A stretch of DNA of 64,000 nucleotides from Ostreococcus lucimarinus (GCA_000092065.1 CP000593.1); one strand, 5' to 3'; positions 31,912-41,217 are shown, counted from the stretch's first letter. Numbers and translations: made by a program. The notes: generated by a model from the letters alone, not told the origin.

Positions 31912-34900
31912 ATGAGCGACGACGCGAGCGATGCGGCGGTGAAAACGACGGAGGAGGCGGCGGGCGTCGTCGAGGCGGCGGGCGCGGCGAGCGAGGCGAC
32001 GGCGGCGATGGAAGAGACGACGACGACGGAGGCGGCGGCGGCGGCGGCGGACGACGACGCGGACGAACCGCGAGTCGACGCGAACGACGGTTCGGGGAAG
32101 GCGGAGAGAATGGATGAGGACGAAGACAGCGATAGCGAAGACGCGGGGATTCGACGACGACGGAGAAAGCGGGCGATGGAGTTGGATGAGGAAGATTACG
32201 AATTGCTCGAGGATAACCAAGTCACCGGGTTCAAGCGCAAGGAGAAGAAGAAACGGATTCAGACGGCGGCCGAGCGCGAGGGCGCGAGCGCGGGAGCGAA
32301 AGCGCCCGGGACGATCGCCGATCTCGAGCGTGGGTTGTTCGGGGACGACGACGAGGAGGCGGACGCCGGGGGGGAAGCGGCGGCGGACGAGGGCGCGGCG
32401 GCTGGGGCGGCGGACGAGGCGGCGAAACCGCCGCCGGCGCAGCAAGGTTTAGGGTACAGCGATGACAGTGAAGACGAGATGGACGACTTCATCGTTCGCG
32501 ACGAGACGGATGGCCCGCGAGAGACGAAGGAGGAACGTCAGCGAAGATACGCGTCCGCCATTCCCGGTTTGCGGCGCGATCAGCTCCAAGACGCGGCGGA
32601 CATCTTTGGCGACACCGATGAGTTGCATCGTATGTTCGCCGCTCGTAATCGCACTGGTGGCGCCAAAGAAGACGTCGTGGAAGAATTGAGTGAGGACGAA
32701 GAGAGTGATGGCGACGAATTGGACACGTTTATCGAAAAGGACGGAGCCACCGAGGAAGACTACGAACAGGCCAAGGCCGCGAGTGATGCGCGAAAAGCGG
32801 CCAAGGCGGCGAGAAAGAGTGCAGGGCGAAAGTCATCGGGCGGCGAAACCAAGGATTGGGCATCTCAAACCTTCGAACCGTCCGTCATCAAGGAACAGAT
32901 GTTGACTGCGAAGGATGACGCGATTCGTGCGCAAGATTTACCAGAGCGTCAGCAACTCAAGCCACGTCCCGCGCACGCGCCGACGGATTGGGGCATGGAA
33001 GCGATGTGGATTTTTGATCGCATCATGGGTAGAGACTCGATCCAAAACAAGCCGACCGTGGAAGGTTATTCCCTTCTGTACGGGGTGGCAGATTACGAAA
33101 ACGAAAACGACCGCAACAATCGACAAGAGCAAATTGCAGGCCTGCAGGAAAGTTTGCCGCAAGAAGAAGAAGAGGAAATCACGCGATGCATCGCGTTATT
33201 ACTCACTCTCACTTTTGACCACCACTTGGAGATTCCGTACATCGTCTCGCAACGTCGCGATGATTTGCTGCCTCTGTTGCGAGGGCGCGCCGAGGAAGCG
33301 CGTCCGGCGCTGACTGAGGATGGCGACAACTACCAACGACTTCTGAGACGTTTCGATGTCATCGATGCCATAATGGAATGGGACGAACGATACGTGAAAC
33401 TGGAACTTCGCAAGGCGAGAATCGCGTCGGCGCTTGAACAAGCCGCGAACGAGAAGGGTGAAAGCGAGCAAGGCCACGTCGCACGCCAGTGCATGGAATT
33501 GGTGCGAGTCGCGTACTTGGATAAGCACGTCGACGATGCCGAAGCCAAGGCAAACTTGTTCTTTGCTTCACTCGATGCAAACTCAAAGCTTCGTCGACCG
33601 GGTCGCAAGACGCAATACGACGCGCACGTCAAGCGAGGCATTCGCGACCTCGTCAACATGTCTGGCCCCACCGCGGAAGCTTTCGGCGAAGCCATCAAGA
33701 GTGGAATCCCCAGCGAACTCATGGCAAACTTGACGCCAGAAGATGTTGCCAAGGTGTACTTTGACCAAGGGTATGCGAACAGCGATGAAGTGATGCAGGC
33801 ATTTGTGAACGTGGCGGCGACGGAGATTGGCGCAGAGTCCGAAGTGCGCAAATGGTTCCGGGATGAATTTTTGGGCCATGCCACCATCACGACGCAGCCT
33901 ACGCCGGAAGGCACGGATATCATCGATCCATGGCATCCAATTGCTCCGGTGAAGCGCTTATTGAAGATGCCCGTGTACATTCTCCAAGGTGAACAATTCG
34001 CGCAGATTCTCGAAGGCAAGCGTCGAGGGCTACTCAAGGTCGACATTGGTTTCGGCGACGAGCGCTTGACCAGCGTGATTGAGCGCATGGAAAAAGCGTA
34101 CTTGAGTGAAAGCATGAGTGATCTCGCGTCGACTTGGAACGAAGTACGTCGCAGAGTGATTCGGGCCGCGCTCGAAGAGCACCTACTTCCGACGTTTTCG
34201 CGCGAGACGGCGAGTCAGCTTGCGCTAGATGCAAGAGACGCATTGAATCGCGCGTGCGCTGACGGCGCATGGAACTACATTTGTCACGCCCCTTGGCGTC
34301 CGGCGAACACGGAAGACCAAGATATCGAAGTGCGCGTCGTCGCCGCCGTCTCTGGTTCGCCCGCCACATTCGTCGCGCTCGATTCAGCCGGCGAGCTTGT
34401 CGACTTCATTCAATGTCATACCCTCGGGCGCAACATCGGCGGGCCCGGAAACGTCGGTGGCGCGCAAATGATGAATCAACAGGATGAGATTCAAGCGCTC
34501 ATGGATTTTATCGTTCAACACCGTCCTCACGTGTGTTGCGTCGGCGCGAGCGGTATGGATTCAAAGCGCGTGAAAGAGTCGCTCAACCTTGTCGTCGGTC
34601 GCATCATCGAAGAGCAACCGCGCGCGATTCCAGAAGAAGTTTCCGAAATTGCAGTTCACTTTGTGGACGATTCTGTCGCGAAATTGTGCGAAAACGCGAA
34701 AGAGACCAAGGCAGAGATGCCCGAGCAGCAGCCGTCTGTGTTGCGCGCCGTGGCGTTGGGTAGAGGTCTGCTGAACCCCGCCGCCGTGGTGGCTTCTCTC
34801 GTGAGCGGTGGCGAAGTCGCTTCGTTGAGAATGTGTCCGCTACAAGATTCGATGCTGAGCAAAGACGATCGCGTCGCCATCGTCGAACGCCAGCTCATAA

Positions 34901-36510
34901 ACCTTGTGAACCAAGTCGGCGTCGACGTCAACATGGCTAGCGCGCATCCATGGTGCAGCGTGTTGCTTCGTTACGTCGGTGGTCTCGGCCCTCGCAAGGC
35001 AACCTTAGTGATAAACGCTGTGCGCACGACCGAAGGTGGCGTCGTTGACTCGCGAGAAGATTTGAAATCGGCTTTGGGCGAGGTTGTCTTTAGGAATGCG
35101 GCGAGCTTCTTGCGAATCACCGAGGCGGACATGCTTGATTCCACGCGTTGCCACCCCGAGCGTTACGAGCAAGCGATGGCGATCGTAGTGAATGCTTTAG
35201 AACTCGAGGCCAACCTTGCGGCGATGGATAAGTACGAACGCGAGCGTATCTTACAAAAAGTGTTCGATCCGAAAACGTGGGAGCAAAAGGTGGCGCCGCT
35301 CATCCTCGAAGAGTATGCCGAGTATTTGGAGTCGGAAGGCGCGGGTAAATCTTTGGAGGCACTTCGCGAGATTCGCATAGAGTTCCGTCATCCATTTGAG
35401 GAGCTTCGTCCGCCGTGGATGCCACTCACCGCTGAAGACGAATTCGCTTTACTTACCGGAGAAACCATGCACACGCTGAGCGCGGGTAAACTCATCCAGT
35501 GTACGGTGAAGAAGATTGAAGGTCCTCGTGATGGCCGAGGCGCACGCGCCGTCTGTACACTCGACAGTGGCCTCACTGGTTACGTCGAAAAGTACGACGT
35601 GAGCGACGATCAAAGCTTCAGCCGCATCGAAGAAAAAGTCGCCCTCGGTCAAGTCATCACGGCGCGCGTCAAGCCGGACGGCGTCGACGTGCACAACTTT
35701 TCCGTCCAACTCGCGTGCAGTTCTTCGGCGCTGCATCCCGATGAGACGCTCCAGTGGGAGCAACACTTGCATTACACGGAAGCAAACGGTTACTACAGCA
35801 TGGTGAAGCAGCCGGGCGAGGTGCGATTGAAGAAGCAAAAGTCGAAGAAGGATATGCAAAAGAGAACCTTCGTGCCGCGTAACATCGATCACCCCAACTT
35901 CCAAAACGTCAGTTGGGCAGAAGCCGTGGAACGACTCGATACCGCGGACATCGGAGAAGTCATCATTCGTCCGAGTGGAAGAGGCACGAAAAACATCGAT
36001 TGCTCTATCAAAGTGTACGACGGCGTTGTCTCTAACATCAACATCAAAGAGACAAAGAAGGACTCTGGCGTTGGCAACCTCGGTCTCGGTACTCCGCTCA
36101 TCATCGACGACGAAGAGTACGAAGACTTGGATGAAGTCATGGCGAGACATATCGAACCGATCGTGTCCAACGTCAAGCATATGCTCAAGCACCGCAAGTT
36201 TATGCGCGGATCGGCGGAGGACATCGACAACGCCCTGAAACAGCAACTTGCCCGTAACCCGGGTATCCGCCCGTACGCCCTCGGCGTAGTCGAGCAGCGA
36301 GTGAACAAAGGCATGGTGTTGTTCTGCATCTCATTCATCATGAGTTCCAGTGGTCGTGTGCACCATGAGTACATTAAGGTCATCCCCGCGGGCTTCTACT
36401 ACCGCAAGATGGAGTTCCCGTCCGTCGATCGTATGTTGGCCTACTTCAAAGTCAACTGCTCCAAGCCGCCCCCGGGCGCGCGCGATATGGACAACGGCGG
36501 ATGGAACTAA
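31912..36510 (+). CDS. SPT6: Transcription elongation factor SPT6
   Basis: Acidic N-terminus (DEDEDSDSEDAG..., EEDYELLEDNQ). Central HtH/YqgF(RuvC-like)/HhH region. S1 domain (..LTGYVEKYDVSDDQSF...GQVITARVKPDGVDVHNFSVQLACSS). C-terminal SH2 (FVPRNIDHPNFQNVSWAEAVERL...IIRPSGRGTKNIDCSIKV). About 1530 aa in a single exon. ATG at 31912 (MSDDASDAAVKTTEE) is preferred over the ORF-track start at 31684, which is R-rich. Confidence 0.9.
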   Translation: MSDDASDAAVKTTEEAAGVVEAAGAASEATAAMEETTTTEAAAAAADDDADEPRVDANDGSGKAERMDEDEDSDSEDAGIRRRRRKRAMELDEEDYELLEDNQVTGFKRKEKKKRIQTAAEREGASAGAKAPGTIADLERGLFGDDDEEADAGGEAAADEGAAAGAADEAAKPPPAQQGLGYSDDSEDEMDDFIVRDETDGPRETKEERQRRYASAIPGLRRDQLQDAADIFGDTDELHRMFAARNRTGGAKEDVVEELSEDEESDGDELDTFIEKDGATEEDYEQAKAASDARKAAKAARKSAGRKSSGGETKDWASQTFEPSVIKEQMLTAKDDAIRAQDLPERQQLKPRPAHAPTDWGMEAMWIFDRIMGRDSIQNKPTVEGYSLLYGVADYENENDRNNRQEQIAGLQESLPQEEEEEITRCIALLLTLTFDHHLEIPYIVSQRRDDLLPLLRGRAEEARPALTEDGDNYQRLLRRFDVIDAIMEWDERYVKLELRKARIASALEQAANEKGESEQGHVARQCMELVRVAYLDKHVDDAEAKANLFFASLDANSKLRRPGRKTQYDAHVKRGIRDLVNMSGPTAEAFGEAIKSGIPSELMANLTPEDVAKVYFDQGYANSDEVMQAFVNVAATEIGAESEVRKWFRDEFLGHATITTQPTPEGTDIIDPWHPIAPVKRLLKMPVYILQGEQFAQILEGKRRGLLKVDIGFGDERLTSVIERMEKAYLSESMSDLASTWNEVRRRVIRAALEEHLLPTFSRETASQLALDARDALNRACADGAWNYICHAPWRPANTEDQDIEVRVVAAVSGSPATFVALDSAGELVDFIQCHTLGRNIGGPGNVGGAQMMNQQDEIQALMDFIVQHRPHVCCVGASGMDSKRVKESLNLVVGRIIEEQPRAIPEEVSEIAVHFVDDSVAKLCENAKETKAEMPEQQPSVLRAVALGRGLLNPAAVVASLVSGGEVASLRMCPLQDSMLSKDDRVAIVERQLINLVNQVGVDVNMASAHPWCSVLLRYVGGLGPRKATLVINAVRTTEGGVVDSREDLKSALGEVVFRNAASFLRITEADMLDSTRCHPERYEQAMAIVVNALELEANLAAMDKYERERILQKVFDPKTWEQKVAPLILEEYAEYLESEGAGKSLEALREIRIEFRHPFEELRPPWMPLTAEDEFALLTGETMHTLSAGKLIQCTVKKIEGPRDGRGARAVCTLDSGLTGYVEKYDVSDDQSFSRIEEKVALGQVITARVKPDGVDVHNFSVQLACSSSALHPDETLQWEQHLHYTEANGYYSMVKQPGEVRLKKQKSKKDMQKRTFVPRNIDHPNFQNVSWAEAVERLDTADIGEVIIRPSGRGTKNIDCSIKVYDGVVSNINIKETKKDSGVGNLGLGTPLIIDDEEYEDLDEVMARHIEPIVSNVKHMLKHRKFMRGSAEDIDNALKQQLARNPGIRPYALGVVEQRVNKGMVLFCISFIMSSSGRVHHEYIKVIPAGFYYRKMEFPSVDRMLAYFKVNCSKPPPGARDMDNGGWN

Positions 36511-36565
36511 TCAGCACACACACACAAACACACACAAACACACAAAACAAAAAACCTACATTAGT
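36511..36565. repeat. CA-rich low-complexity tract (acacacaaacacacacaaacacacaaaacaaaaaac) in the SPT6-SPO11 intergenic region
   Basis: Direct reading immediately after the SPT6 stop codon. Confidence 0.8.
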
Positions 36566-36688
36566 AAATACGTTGCAATCACGACGCGTACAAATCTTAG
36601 CATCTTAGCGATTCGGCCTCCGAGACGGCCCTCGACCGCACACTCCCGCGCGACCGGTTTCGTGCCGACGCGCGACGTCTCGCCGCGC

Positions 36689-38065
36689 ATGACTGACGAC
36701 CTCGAATGCGTCGATTTCGCGCCCCCGCGCTCGCCCGCGACGCTCGAGCACGACGGTGGACGATTCTTTGACGACGATTCGCAAGACTTTGCAAACTTTG
36801 TCGGCGACGGCGACGACGAGGACGAGGACGACGTGTTCGATACCGTATTCTCCGCGCAAACCCGCATGCGCGCGCGCGTACTGGAGCGCATTGAGTTACT
36901 TGCGTGTAAGTTCGCGCAGGACGCCCTGCGCGCGGGCGATGGTGCGAGTGGGGGAATGCCCGTCGTGCGCGGCGATCGCCTCTCGAGATCGAATCGGCGC
37001 TACGAGAACGGGGAGGCGATCGATGAGGATGACCCGAGCGATAGCGACGAGAACGACGACATCGGAGGCAAAAGAAACGATGAATCACGAACATCTTGCG
37101 TTGTCGCCAGGTTTACGGGCGATGGAAACGCGTACGAGCGGTTTTGGGATGTTTTGAGCGTGCTCGCCAACGCGTTGCGACGGACCGATTGCGAGAGCGG
37201 CATGTCGCTGCGCGAGCTTTATTACGTGATGAATAGTCGCGGTCGACGCGGTGGTTGGCCAAGTGGTTCGACGCAAACGCGCGTGACGGAACATCAAATC
37301 GCGGCGACGATTCGGAAAATATCACAAGCTCTGGGTGCGCCCAGAATTGCCCTCGGAATCGTTGCGGCTTCGAAGGGGCAGGTGGCTGGTCGATGTCACA
37401 TCGAAACCGCCTCGGGCGCTCGATTCGATTGCACCGCGTGCGGGAACGATGGGTGGGCAATTACGGGTGATTTATTTGAGCTCGACGCGACGAAGATTCA
37501 CAGCGACGCAGCGTACGTGATCGTCGTAGAGAAGGACGCCGTGTTTAATCGTTTGTGCGCCGAACGCGTCTTTGAAAAGTTGCCGTGCGTGCTCGTCACA
37601 GCGAAAGGATTTCCAGATTTGGCGACTAGGAAATTTCTCCACTTGTTGCGACGCGCGCTCGAGGACAACGACCGCGGGAACGAGGCGCAGTTTTTCGGGC
37701 TCGTCGATTGGAATCCGTCGGGTTGCTGGATTCTGTCTACGTACACAGTCGGAAACTCGTCGAGCGCAATGGACGTGTCAGAATACGTCACGCCGCTGAA
37801 ATGGATCGGTTTACGTTCGCAAGATTTGTATTTGATCCCCGAGTGCGCGTTTCAGGCGTTGTCGAGCCGAGACGAGGCGATGATTAACAACGCGCTGAAC
37901 GAAACCGCGGCGACGCATCCGCTGAGACCTTTCGCGAGCGAGTTAGAAGTGATGCAGGCGCGAGGTCAGAAGGCTGAGATCGAAGCGTTATACGCGAATG
38001 ATGACATCTCTTTCTTGCTCACCGACTTCGTGTCGTCCAAGATTGCGGCGTTCGAGGAGGAGTGA
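36689..38065 (+). CDS. SPO11: Meiotic recombination protein SPO11 / topoisomerase VI subunit A homologue
   Basis: ATG at 36689. Winged-helix/5Y-CAP region has the catalytic Tyr context (..MSLRELYYVMNSR..). The Toprim domain reads AAYVIVVEKDAVFNRLCAERVFEKLPCVLVTAKGFPDLATRKFLHLL with the acidic metal-binding residues (..GLVDWNPSG..). The ORF-track extension back to 36350 overlaps the SPT6 3' end and is not coding. Confidence 0.85.
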   Translation: MTDDLECVDFAPPRSPATLEHDGGRFFDDDSQDFANFVGDGDDEDEDDVFDTVFSAQTRMRARVLERIELLACKFAQDALRAGDGASGGMPVVRGDRLSRSNRRYENGEAIDEDDPSDSDENDDIGGKRNDESRTSCVVARFTGDGNAYERFWDVLSVLANALRRTDCESGMSLRELYYVMNSRGRRGGWPSGSTQTRVTEHQIAATIRKISQALGAPRIALGIVAASKGQVAGRCHIETASGARFDCTACGNDGWAITGDLFELDATKIHSDAAYVIVVEKDAVFNRLCAERVFEKLPCVLVTAKGFPDLATRKFLHLLRRALEDNDRGNEAQFFGLVDWNPSGCWILSTYTVGNSSSAMDVSEYVTPLKWIGLRSQDLYLIPECAFQALSSRDEAMINNALNETAATHPLRPFASELEVMQARGQKAEIEALYANDDISFLLTDFVSSKIAAFEEE

Positions 38066-39218: not shown

Positions 39219-39906
39219 CGCGCGCGGTCGGCGCGCCGATCGACGGCGTCGTCGTCGTCGTCGTCGCGTTCGCGTCCGTCGCGACGCGCGCGCCGCCGTC
39301 GTCGCGCGTCGCGATGCGCGCGCGTCGCCGCGACGAACGGTCGACGTCGTCGCGCGCGGTGTTTAGCTATCCATATACCATAGCATAGATACCGCAAACG
39401 TATCCTGAAATACAGCGTTACGTGCGTTGTACGTGACGGGAGTATTTAATGACGAACCGTCGATGGGACTCCAGACGTTTACAATACGATGTGGGACGTC
39501 ATAAAATTTAGAGGCCGCGCGCGGCGCCGACGCGCGGTCGTTGCGCGCGCGTCGCGCGTCGCGCGTCGCTCGTCGTCGCGCGCGTCGCGCGTCGCGCGTC
39601 CCCGCGCGCGGCGCCATGCGCGGCGGCGCGCGCCGCGACGGACGACCGCCGCGCGGCGCGAACGACGACGGCATCGACGATGATTTCGACGACGACGTCG
39701 AGCCGCCGCTTCGCGCGACGACGAAATCGCCGGTGCGGTTCGGCATGGCGCCGCACCCGACGCTGTGCGCGTCCGTGCCGGAGGATCTGAAGAATTACGG
39801 CCGGCGCGGGCGCGCGAGCGCCGGGACGCATCGGTGTCCGTGCGCGCACGCGGCGCGGGACGAGACGCGGGACGACGACGACGCGAGGACGTGCGCGGGA
39901 AGCGCG

Positions 39907-41217
39907 ATGGAAACGGCGCGGCGAGGGTTCGCGGCGGCGTACGCGACGCGGGCGGGGATAAGTTTGGCGGCGCACGTCGTCAGGACGCTCAGGCGCGGGT
40001 CGGCGAGGAAGTGCTTGGATTTGGGTCACCTGGTGGGGGAGGAGACGTTGAGGTATCGGGAAGACGCGGCGCGGTTCGGATTGTTCGCGGGCGGGTTCGC
40101 GGGGACGTACTCGGCGACGCGGTGTTGGCTGTGTTACGTCACGGCGCCGAGCGGGGGGGAGGAGGGCGCGGAGACGGTGGAGAAGGGCGCGGAAAAGGGC
40201 GCGGACGCCGTCGTCGAGCGGTCGGCGAGGGAGCCGTTCACGCCCGAGTCCGCGGCGTCCATCGCGGGCGGCGTCGCGGGGCTGTCCATATTCTTCCTCA
40301 AACCGAAGTATCGTCGCGCGTTTTCGCTGTATCTTCTCGCCAAGCTCGCGCAGGCGAGCTGGGCGAGCGCGCAGAAGGAGCATCCTTGGATGAAGGAGCG
40401 AGGTCCGGCGGCGTGGAGGCACACGAATTTCGCGCTCTTCACGCTTTCGTCCGCGCAAATCATGTACGCGTACGTCATGCGACCCGATACGCTCGATCCA
40501 GGGTTTTGGAACTTTATCGTGAACGCCGGGCCGATCGACAAGCAGACGCTCGGCGCCGTGCGCGAGAGCGTGCGAAGCGGCGCGAGCGCCGCCGTGGTGG
40601 GGTGCGACCACACGCACGGAAGCACGGGCGCGCTGTGGTGCTCATCCCACGTCGCTGCGTCATCGTTTTCCACTTTCAAAAAGTGTTTTCCGTTTTACTT
40701 TTCGATTCATTACGTGCCATACGTGGTTCTTAATTTAAGCAAAGCGGTGCAGAAGCCGCTGTCGACGCTGTATCGCGCGACCAAGGCGACGGTGCGCTCG
40801 TCCACGATGATTTCCACGTACGTTGGTTTATATATGAGCACGGTGTGTTTGCATCGAAACTCCGGTCTCCGCGATCACCGCGCGCTGTACTATCTCGCCG
40901 GGGTCGTCGCCAGCGGCGCGTTGTTGGTCGAAGACGAAGGCAGGCGCACCGACTTGACTCTTTGGATTGTACCGCGCGCCGTTGATTCCCTCGTATTAGT
41001 CTTGGTGCGCAAAGGCATACTTCCGCACGTCGCGAATTTCGAAAGTTATTTATTCGCTCTCGTGATGAGCGGCGTGATGAACCTTTACGAGAGAGAACCG
41101 GACGTGTTGGAGCGCAATTTAACGCGCTTCATCGCTCGCTTCGTCGAACCGCCGACGGCGACCAGTGTCGGGCGCTTATCGAGCATCTCCCGCGACGCCA
41201 GCGTCTCGCTCATGTGA
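39907..41217 (+). CDS. Multi-pass membrane protein, TMEM135/Tim17-like (start uncertain; alternative ATG at 39616)
   Basis: Several hydrophobic helices with Gly-rich Tim17-like segments (FGLFAGGFAGTYSATRCW, ...LYLLAKLAQASWASA...). The family call is from memory and is weak. The ORF-track start at 39541 is TTG within an R-rich tract. Confidence 0.4.
   Translation: METARRGFAAAYATRAGISLAAHVVRTLRRGSARKCLDLGHLVGEETLRYREDAARFGLFAGGFAGTYSATRCWLCYVTAPSGGEEGAETVEKGAEKGADAVVERSAREPFTPESAASIAGGVAGLSIFFLKPKYRRAFSLYLLAKLAQASWASAQKEHPWMKERGPAAWRHTNFALFTLSSAQIMYAYVMRPDTLDPGFWNFIVNAGPIDKQTLGAVRESVRSGASAAVVGCDHTHGSTGALWCSSHVAASSFSTFKKCFPFYFSIHYVPYVVLNLSKAVQKPLSTLYRATKATVRSSTMISTYVGLYMSTVCLHRNSGLRDHRALYYLAGVVASGALLVEDEGRRTDLTLWIVPRAVDSLVLVLVRKGILPHVANFESYLFALVMSGVMNLYEREPDVLERNLTRFIARFVEPPTATSVGRLSSISRDASVSLM

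Follow-up and report, generated by a model that had tools for sequence, protein, structure and literature searches.

SPO11 is the DNA-cutting enzyme that starts meiotic recombination. Within this family, the proteins closest to the one described here are the SPO11-2 proteins of plants and algae, such as AtSPO11-2 (Q9M4A1), with which it shares the motifs R-E-L-[FY]-Y, VEK[DH]A, AKG[FY]PD and VDWNP. The last of these contains a DxN in place of the DxD of the Toprim motif, a substitution that is invariable in plant SPO11-2 and is sometimes found in protists (Allen & Maxwell 2024, PMC11302465). While land-plant SPO11-2 has SPO11-1 as its partner, no SPO11-1 has been reported in chlorophytes, so that a homodimer is expected there. 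The Mamiellales have been described as lacking SPO11-1 but possessing a DxN SPO11-2 (Allen & Maxwell 2024, PMC11302465), the same conclusion was reached for chlorophytes, which were found to have no SPO11-1 (Thangavel et al. 2023, PMC9957857), and the authors of these surveys already note a probable DxN/DxN SPO11-2 homodimer.

Other members of the superfamily are more distant. Yeast and animal Spo11 and AtSPO11-1 are expected to share a Tyr-linked double-strand break chemistry with the protein described here, which also matches the yeast core complex (8urq) in structure; the SPO11-1 clade differs in possessing DxD rather than DxN and in its weaker sequence similarity, and the protein falls outside it. 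SPO11-3 of Ostreococcus lucimarinus and plant TOP6A have in common with it the superfamily, the fold, the catalytic Tyr and the Glu and first Asp of the Toprim domain, but are set apart by the motifs TKRDLFYTD, LLVEKDAAF, AKGQPDV and D-A-D, and by strong TP6A_N (80 bits) and Topo_VI_alpha matches. Among solved structures, archaeal Top6A proteins (Methanocaldococcus jannaschii 1D3Y, S. shibatae 2ZBK and M. mazei 2Q2E) match the 5Y-CAP and Toprim domains best, but are only 18-24% identical and are true ATP-dependent topoisomerase subunits with DxD, whereas the O. lucimarinus protein has the DxN of SPO11-2 together with eukaryote-specific N-terminal additions.

In Ostreococcus, the family has been discussed in connection with sex. 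The literature on the first O. tauri genome lists Spo11, Hop1, Hop2, Mnd1, Dmc1 and Msh5, and reads them as evidence for an undescribed sexual cycle (PMC2488364, PMC8557840). Every sequenced member of the Mamiellophyceae, O. lucimarinus among them, has since been described as carrying meiosis genes, together with population-genetic evidence for recombination, while neither meiosis nor a sexual cycle has ever been observed in Ostreococcus (PMC8557840). Here we examine a SPO11-family gene within a 64,000-nucleotide stretch of DNA (GCA_000092065.1 CP000593.1), hereafter the window, from O. lucimarinus, a tiny marine green alga. We conclude that the gene is very probably its SPO11-2 orthologue, SPO11-2 being the paralogue of the topoisomerase VI A subunit that acts in meiosis.

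An intact SPO11-family gene lies immediately downstream of SPT6

The gene and its upstream surroundings comprise the following features:

31912-36510, + strand: SPT6, the upstream neighbour, given as context (Pfam SH2_2 at E 2.7e-61, HHH_7, YqgF and Spt6_S1)
36511-36688, + strand: intergenic spacer of 178 nt (from the sequence and an alignment of four Ostreococcus lineages)
36689-38065, + strand: SPO11-2 coding sequence (from the ORF, the Pfam Toprim match, identity to XP_001420895, dN/dS and clade)

An earlier note, made from the sequence of the window alone, had proposed that a full-length, intact Spo11-family ORF lies just 3' of SPT6, and both the ORF call and its translation bear this out: the frame runs uninterrupted and without an intron for 458 codons plus the stop, which is included in position 38065. 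Reading on from the end of SPT6, the first ATG in frame is at position 36689, and the start it gives, MTDDL..., is also that of the SPO11-2 proteins of two related lineages (L005 and L006). Pfam matches confirmed the identity of the neighbour, and since SPT6 ends at 36510 and the ATG lies at 36689, 178 nt separate stop and start, which is the 179 bp of the earlier note in that note's way of counting. SPT6 encodes 1532 aa as called on a Logan contig that shares 13.4 kb of identical sequence with the window. The gene order EMC1-SPT6-SPO11-DUF179-zfMYND is common to the window and to O. tauri chromosome 13, where the 'Putative SPO11 protein' (P0013) is the positional orthologue, with the same domain layout and a DWNP motif; the O. 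tauri protein likewise has Toprim as its sole Pfam match, but is 410 aa long, has a different N-terminal region and shares 50% of its residues with the O. lucimarinus protein.

As a separate observation on this neighbourhood, the DUF179 and zf-MYND genes flank an ORF at 39541-41217 (+), whose length on the identical Logan contig is called as about 533 aa. The sole Pfam signal of this ORF is a weak TMEM135 match (E 0.005), and no gene is called in the syntenic interval of O. tauri.

Over 287 aa, the 458-aa ORF matches XP_001420895/ABO99188 of O. lucimarinus CCE9901, deposited as a "predicted protein", with 100% identity. The start of this deposited model is M172, only seven residues ahead of the catalytic Tyr, and the model is therefore N-terminally truncated relative to the ORF, with the segment 36689-37201 missing. 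The 171 residues N-terminal of M172 are conserved in related lineages. Because these upstream residues are conserved, are under purifying selection and include a confidently predicted helix, the 458-aa reading is to be preferred over the public model.

The protein combines a diverged winged-helix domain with a DxN Toprim domain

An AlphaFold model of the protein built on 42 homologues (pLDDT 76, pTM 0.73) was used, together with alignments and Pfam searches, to divide the coding sequence as follows:

36689-36820, + strand: residues 1-44, poorly conserved N-terminal tail with predicted disorder (AlphaFold pLDDT 30-40)
36824-36940, + strand: residues 46-84, long N-terminal helix with R67-I-E69 (AlphaFold pLDDT 78-90)
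36944-37099, + strand: residues 86-137, acidic disordered insertion (...DEDDPSDSDENDD...; pLDDT <50)
37124-37498, + strand: residues 146-270, winged-helix (5Y-CAP) domain of diverged sequence, carrying R175 and the catalytic Y179 (alignment, fold and dN/dS)
37499-38062, + strand: residues 271-458, Toprim domain (Pfam PF21180, E 1.9e-33 at residues 276-452)

The N-terminal tail varies among Ostreococcus clades and is longer than that of plant SPO11-2. In the helix that follows it, R67 and E69 vary hardly at all among SPO11-2 and fungal Spo11 proteins. Since binding of TOPOVIBL needs the N-terminal helix of Spo11 (PMC9665070), the helix at residues 46-84 with its R-I-E motif is, by analogy, where a TopoVI-B-like subunit probably docks. 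The 52-residue acidic disordered insertion (...NGEAIDEDDPSDSDENDDIGGKRNDES...), a further addition relative to plant SPO11-2, is specific to Ostreococcus-type SPO11-2, being absent in Micromonas, streptophyte and fungal homologues.

The winged-helix domain has diverged so far that it falls below the Pfam threshold, again in contrast with plant SPO11-2, from which the gene also differs in being intron-free; TP6A_N gave a sub-threshold 11.6 bits (cut-off 26) at residues 152-224. A Foldseek search against the PDB nevertheless returned M. jannaschii Top6A (1d3y) at E 2e-15 and TM 0.74 over about 320 columns, a match that spans the catalytic winged-helix domain and shows it to be present despite its diverged sequence. 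Further matches were 2zbk (E 1.9e-14) and yeast Spo11 8urq (E 4.8e-11), and no fold other than Top6A/Spo11 was returned from the PDB below E 0.4. By sequence, M. jannaschii Top6A matched the protein at E 1e-14, with R175-E-L-Y-Y179 aligned to LREAYY of the archaeal protein.

The catalytic residues can be placed precisely within this framework. The Y179 codon occupies 37223-37225, that of E281 37529-37531, and those of D340-W-N342 37706-37714. R175, Y179, E281, K282 and D340 are invariant among the 42 homologues, as are P343 and G345 of the Toprim domain in the family alignment. The catalytic Tyr that the earlier note had read as conserved is thus confirmed, as Y179 in R-E-L-Y-Y, invariant in 42 sequences, and the inactivated Tyr by which that note would have recognised a pseudogene is not what the gene encodes. 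Its second reading, that the Toprim acidic residues are conserved, is right for E281 and D340 but not for the second Asp of DxD, which is Asn in this protein (D340-W-N342). DxN is a known exception of SPO11-2 (PMC11302465), so that the lack of DxD does not by itself exclude the protein from the superfamily.

Phylogeny places the protein with SPO11-2

The earlier note had left the distinction between Spo11-1/2 and Spo11-3 to phylogeny. In pairwise BLAST comparisons the best match of the protein was AtSPO11-2 (Q9M4A1), at 190 bits and 36% identity over 292 aa, followed by Physcomitrium TOP6A (138 bits), O. lucimarinus SPO11-3 (132), AtSPO11-1 (108), M. jannaschii Top6A (80) and yeast Spo11 (24 bits), with the AtSPO11-1 and AtSPO11-2 reference sequences taken from PMC9957857. 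An exhaustive phmmer search yielded 2124 relatives, and a neighbour-joining (NJ) tree of 136 sequences and 317 trimmed columns was built, with 300 bootstraps, from a sample of the listed top matches to which references were added; this is a distance method applied to a sample enriched for the best matches of the query. In this tree, the protein grouped with AtSPO11-2 and with an SPO11-2-like protein of Physcomitrium, to the exclusion of every SPO11-1 and SPO11-3 reference, in 248/300 bootstraps (83%), a placement also obtained in 171/200 bootstraps of an earlier NJ run. The SPO11-3 reference clade excluded the protein in all 300 bootstraps; the protein lay closer to SPO11-3 than SPO11-2 in 18/300 only, and AtSPO11-1 was a closer neighbour than the SPO11-2 references in 24/300 only.

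The motifs follow the same division. DxN was present in 99 of the 100 members of the SPO11-2 clade versus 2 of the 31 sequences outside it, while a search of the protein for the SPO11-3 motifs TKRDLFYTD, LLVEKDAA and DxD found none of them, and it gave no match to Topo_VI_alpha (PF20768), which is present in O. lucimarinus SPO11-3. The SPO11-3 references came from a plant TOP6A search. A word-index profile search with Arabidopsis SPO11-1 and SPO11-3 baits, which served as search aids only and lie outside the evidence, found SPO11-1 of Arabidopsis and Capsella and no SPO11-3.

O. lucimarinus possesses a separate, canonical SPO11-3

A second family member, ABO95960/XP_001417667, was identified on another O. 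lucimarinus contig of 847,696 bp. This protein is a canonical SPO11-3/TOP6A: it is 72% identical to Physcomitrium TOP6A, carries TKRDLFYTD and D-A-D, and strongly matches all three Pfam domains. Ostreococcus SPO11-3 was not among the best 120 of the 1669 matches to plant TOP6A, and was recovered through a metagenome scan followed by exact cluster look-up; O. tauri figures among the eukaryotes with topoisomerase VI sequences. SPO11-3 is 93-96% identical among Ostreococcus clades, versus 50-56% for SPO11-2.

The deposited SPO11-3 model (XP_001417667, 339 aa), judged by its sequence, also looks N-terminally short; two metagenome contigs (L074/L076, 4001-5167) carry a 424-aa SPO11-3 ORF that is identical to it over all 339 aa. 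More broadly, the intron-free SPO11-3/TOP6A genes on marine metagenome contigs (L025-L086) form distinct groups, two of which (56-63% GC) match O. lucimarinus and O. mediterraneus in exact cluster look-ups, while others have 42-46% and 56-67% GC. The encoded proteins are 85-96% identical across genera, and so are far more conserved than SPO11-2.

SPO11-2 is maintained by purifying selection

Intact SPO11-2 orthologues were found in at least eight Ostreococcus-type lineages. Nei-Gojobori dN/dS for the gene was 0.23 in comparison with a 93%-identical lineage, 0.16 with an 81%-identical lineage and 0.20 with O. tauri, which shows that it is under purifying selection. The winged-helix domain is its most constrained part (dN/dS 0.06-0.13), and residues 1-145, which lie upstream of the deposited start, are under purifying selection as well (0.24-0.53). 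Read from the sequence, the 50% amino acid identity between O. lucimarinus and O. tauri might possibly reflect some relaxation of constraint. We also considered whether SPO11-2 had diverged exceptionally, and rejected this, as the neighbouring EMC1, at 52% identity to O. tauri, has diverged to a similar degree; the divergence of the gene is locally unexceptional.

A conserved non-coding block lies in the short spacer

The 178-nt spacer must hold both the 3' end of SPT6 and the promoter and 5' UTR of SPO11-2. A CA-rich tract, to which the earlier note had drawn attention, is indeed found there at about 36513-36555. This tract behaves like a microsatellite and not like a conserved signal. As an observation on its length in close relatives, lineage L005 (400-460) has an expanded CACACCTA repeat while L006 has almost none.

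Conservation is found instead in a non-coding block of about 55 nt, at about 36544-36601 of the spacer (...AAACAA..ACCTACATTAGTAAATACGTTGCAATCACGACGCGTACAAATCTTAG...). Three O. lucimarinus-like lineages retain most of the block, and it can still be made out in O. tauri, at a distance where dS is about 1.9 and synonymous sites are saturated. It may represent the polyadenylation region of SPT6, the core promoter of SPO11-2, or both. An ACGCGT within this block that resembles a MluI box was considered as a cell-cycle or meiotic element and rejected, since L006 reads ACTCGT.

A model for SPO11-2 function and its alternatives

As inferred from the family, two copies of SPO11-2 would dimerise. The dimer is probably a homodimer with two DxN sites, as opposed to the SPO11-1/SPO11-2 heterodimer of land plants, since published surveys of chlorophytes and Mamiellales have turned up no SPO11-1 (PMC11302465, PMC9665070, PMC9957857). 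The N-terminal helix would hold this dimer to a TopoVI-B-like subunit, again as in other members of the family. Each Tyr179 would then attack a single strand of the DNA, while the Toprim residues of the other subunit (E281/D340/N342) hold Mg2+, to give a double-strand break that is covalently capped through 5' protein-DNA links. By the same family precedent, this break would start meiotic recombination in a sexual cycle that has gone unobserved in culture.

The earlier note had weighed the meiotic reading against that of a TopoVI-A paralogue used for endoreduplication, as for SPO11-3. A canonical topoisomerase VI A subunit, acting with TOP6B in decatenation or endoreduplication and outside meiosis, would fit the family-level fold, for which archaeal Top6A gives the best structural matches, and BLAST scores to TOP6A still reach 132-138 bits. 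Yet the best pairwise match is AtSPO11-2, the SPO11-3 clade left the protein out in every bootstrap replicate, with a nearer placement to SPO11-3 in just 18, and the Toprim motif is DxN, with TKRDLFYTD, DxD and Topo_VI_alpha all lacking; moreover, the species has a highly conserved SPO11-3 of its own, ABO95960, on another contig. On these grounds, and as far as sequence can tell, we reject the topoisomerase reading, which we consider highly improbable, and favour the meiotic one: the protein groups with SPO11-2 and never with the SPO11-3/Top6A clade. A relic whose frame is open but whose function has been lost is so improbable as to be practically negligible. The diverged winged-helix domain, the long disordered acidic insertion and the 50% identity to O. 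tauri might suggest decay, but dN/dS of 0.16-0.23 in three comparisons, falling to 0.06-0.13 over the catalytic domain, and catalytic residues that are all invariant led us to reject a pseudogene, and the gene has intact orthologues in at least eight Ostreococcus-type lineages and a divergence similar to that of EMC1 (52%).

A different question is whether a true SPO11-2 might have a role outside or beyond meiosis, through programmed breaks in vegetative cells or as a heterodimer with SPO11-3, along the lines proposed for Plasmodium SPO11-2. Membership of the clade is not in itself proof of a meiotic role, since Plasmodium reportedly cannot do without SPO11-2 in its asexual stages (Allen & Maxwell, PMC11302465); the sexual cycle of Ostreococcus has never been seen (PMC8557840), and purifying selection maintains the gene in many wild lineages. 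Against this, Ostreococcus possesses the other members of the meiotic toolkit according to the literature cited above, population data indicate recombination (PMC8557840), plant SPO11-2 has been needed for meiotic breaks wherever tested (PMC11302465, PMC9957857), and the sequence itself gives no sign of a new activity, so that we regard such a role as unlikely. There is, by the same token, only a small chance that the Mamiellales SPO11-2, which is fast-evolving and combines DxN with a diverged 5Y-CAP domain and an acidic insertion, acts vegetatively or pairs with SPO11-3/TOP6B instead of a TopoVI-B-like subunit. If it did, the presence of SPO11-2 would be no evidence for meiosis.

Discussion

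The gene described here, which we take with high confidence to be an SPO11-2, is real and intact, and is already described in the literature. ABO99188 and ABO95960 appear as "Ol2" and "Ol3", respectively, in the SPO11 tree of Shingu et al. 2012 (PMC3273433), and with the identity of ABO99188 as SPO11-2, the absence of SPO11-1 from Mamiellales, the DxN motif and the argument for cryptic sex all published, the locus was known. The earlier note was right to suspect that its source was an organism without a described sexual cycle, as holds for Ostreococcus (PMC8557840). Its suggestion that an intact SPO11 constitutes evidence for cryptic meiosis is not new, however, as Spo11 and other meiosis genes of Ostreococcus were reported in 2006-2010 and have been discussed repeatedly since.

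The only additions made here are the corrected, N-terminally extended gene model and the conserved block in the 178-nt spacer. The public SPO11-2 model should grow from 287 to 458 aa, because in its present form the N-terminal helix is missing and the catalytic winged-helix domain is cut to half, although the practical value of this change is small. The SPO11-2 gene itself forms part of the standard argument for unobserved sex in the smallest free-living eukaryotes.
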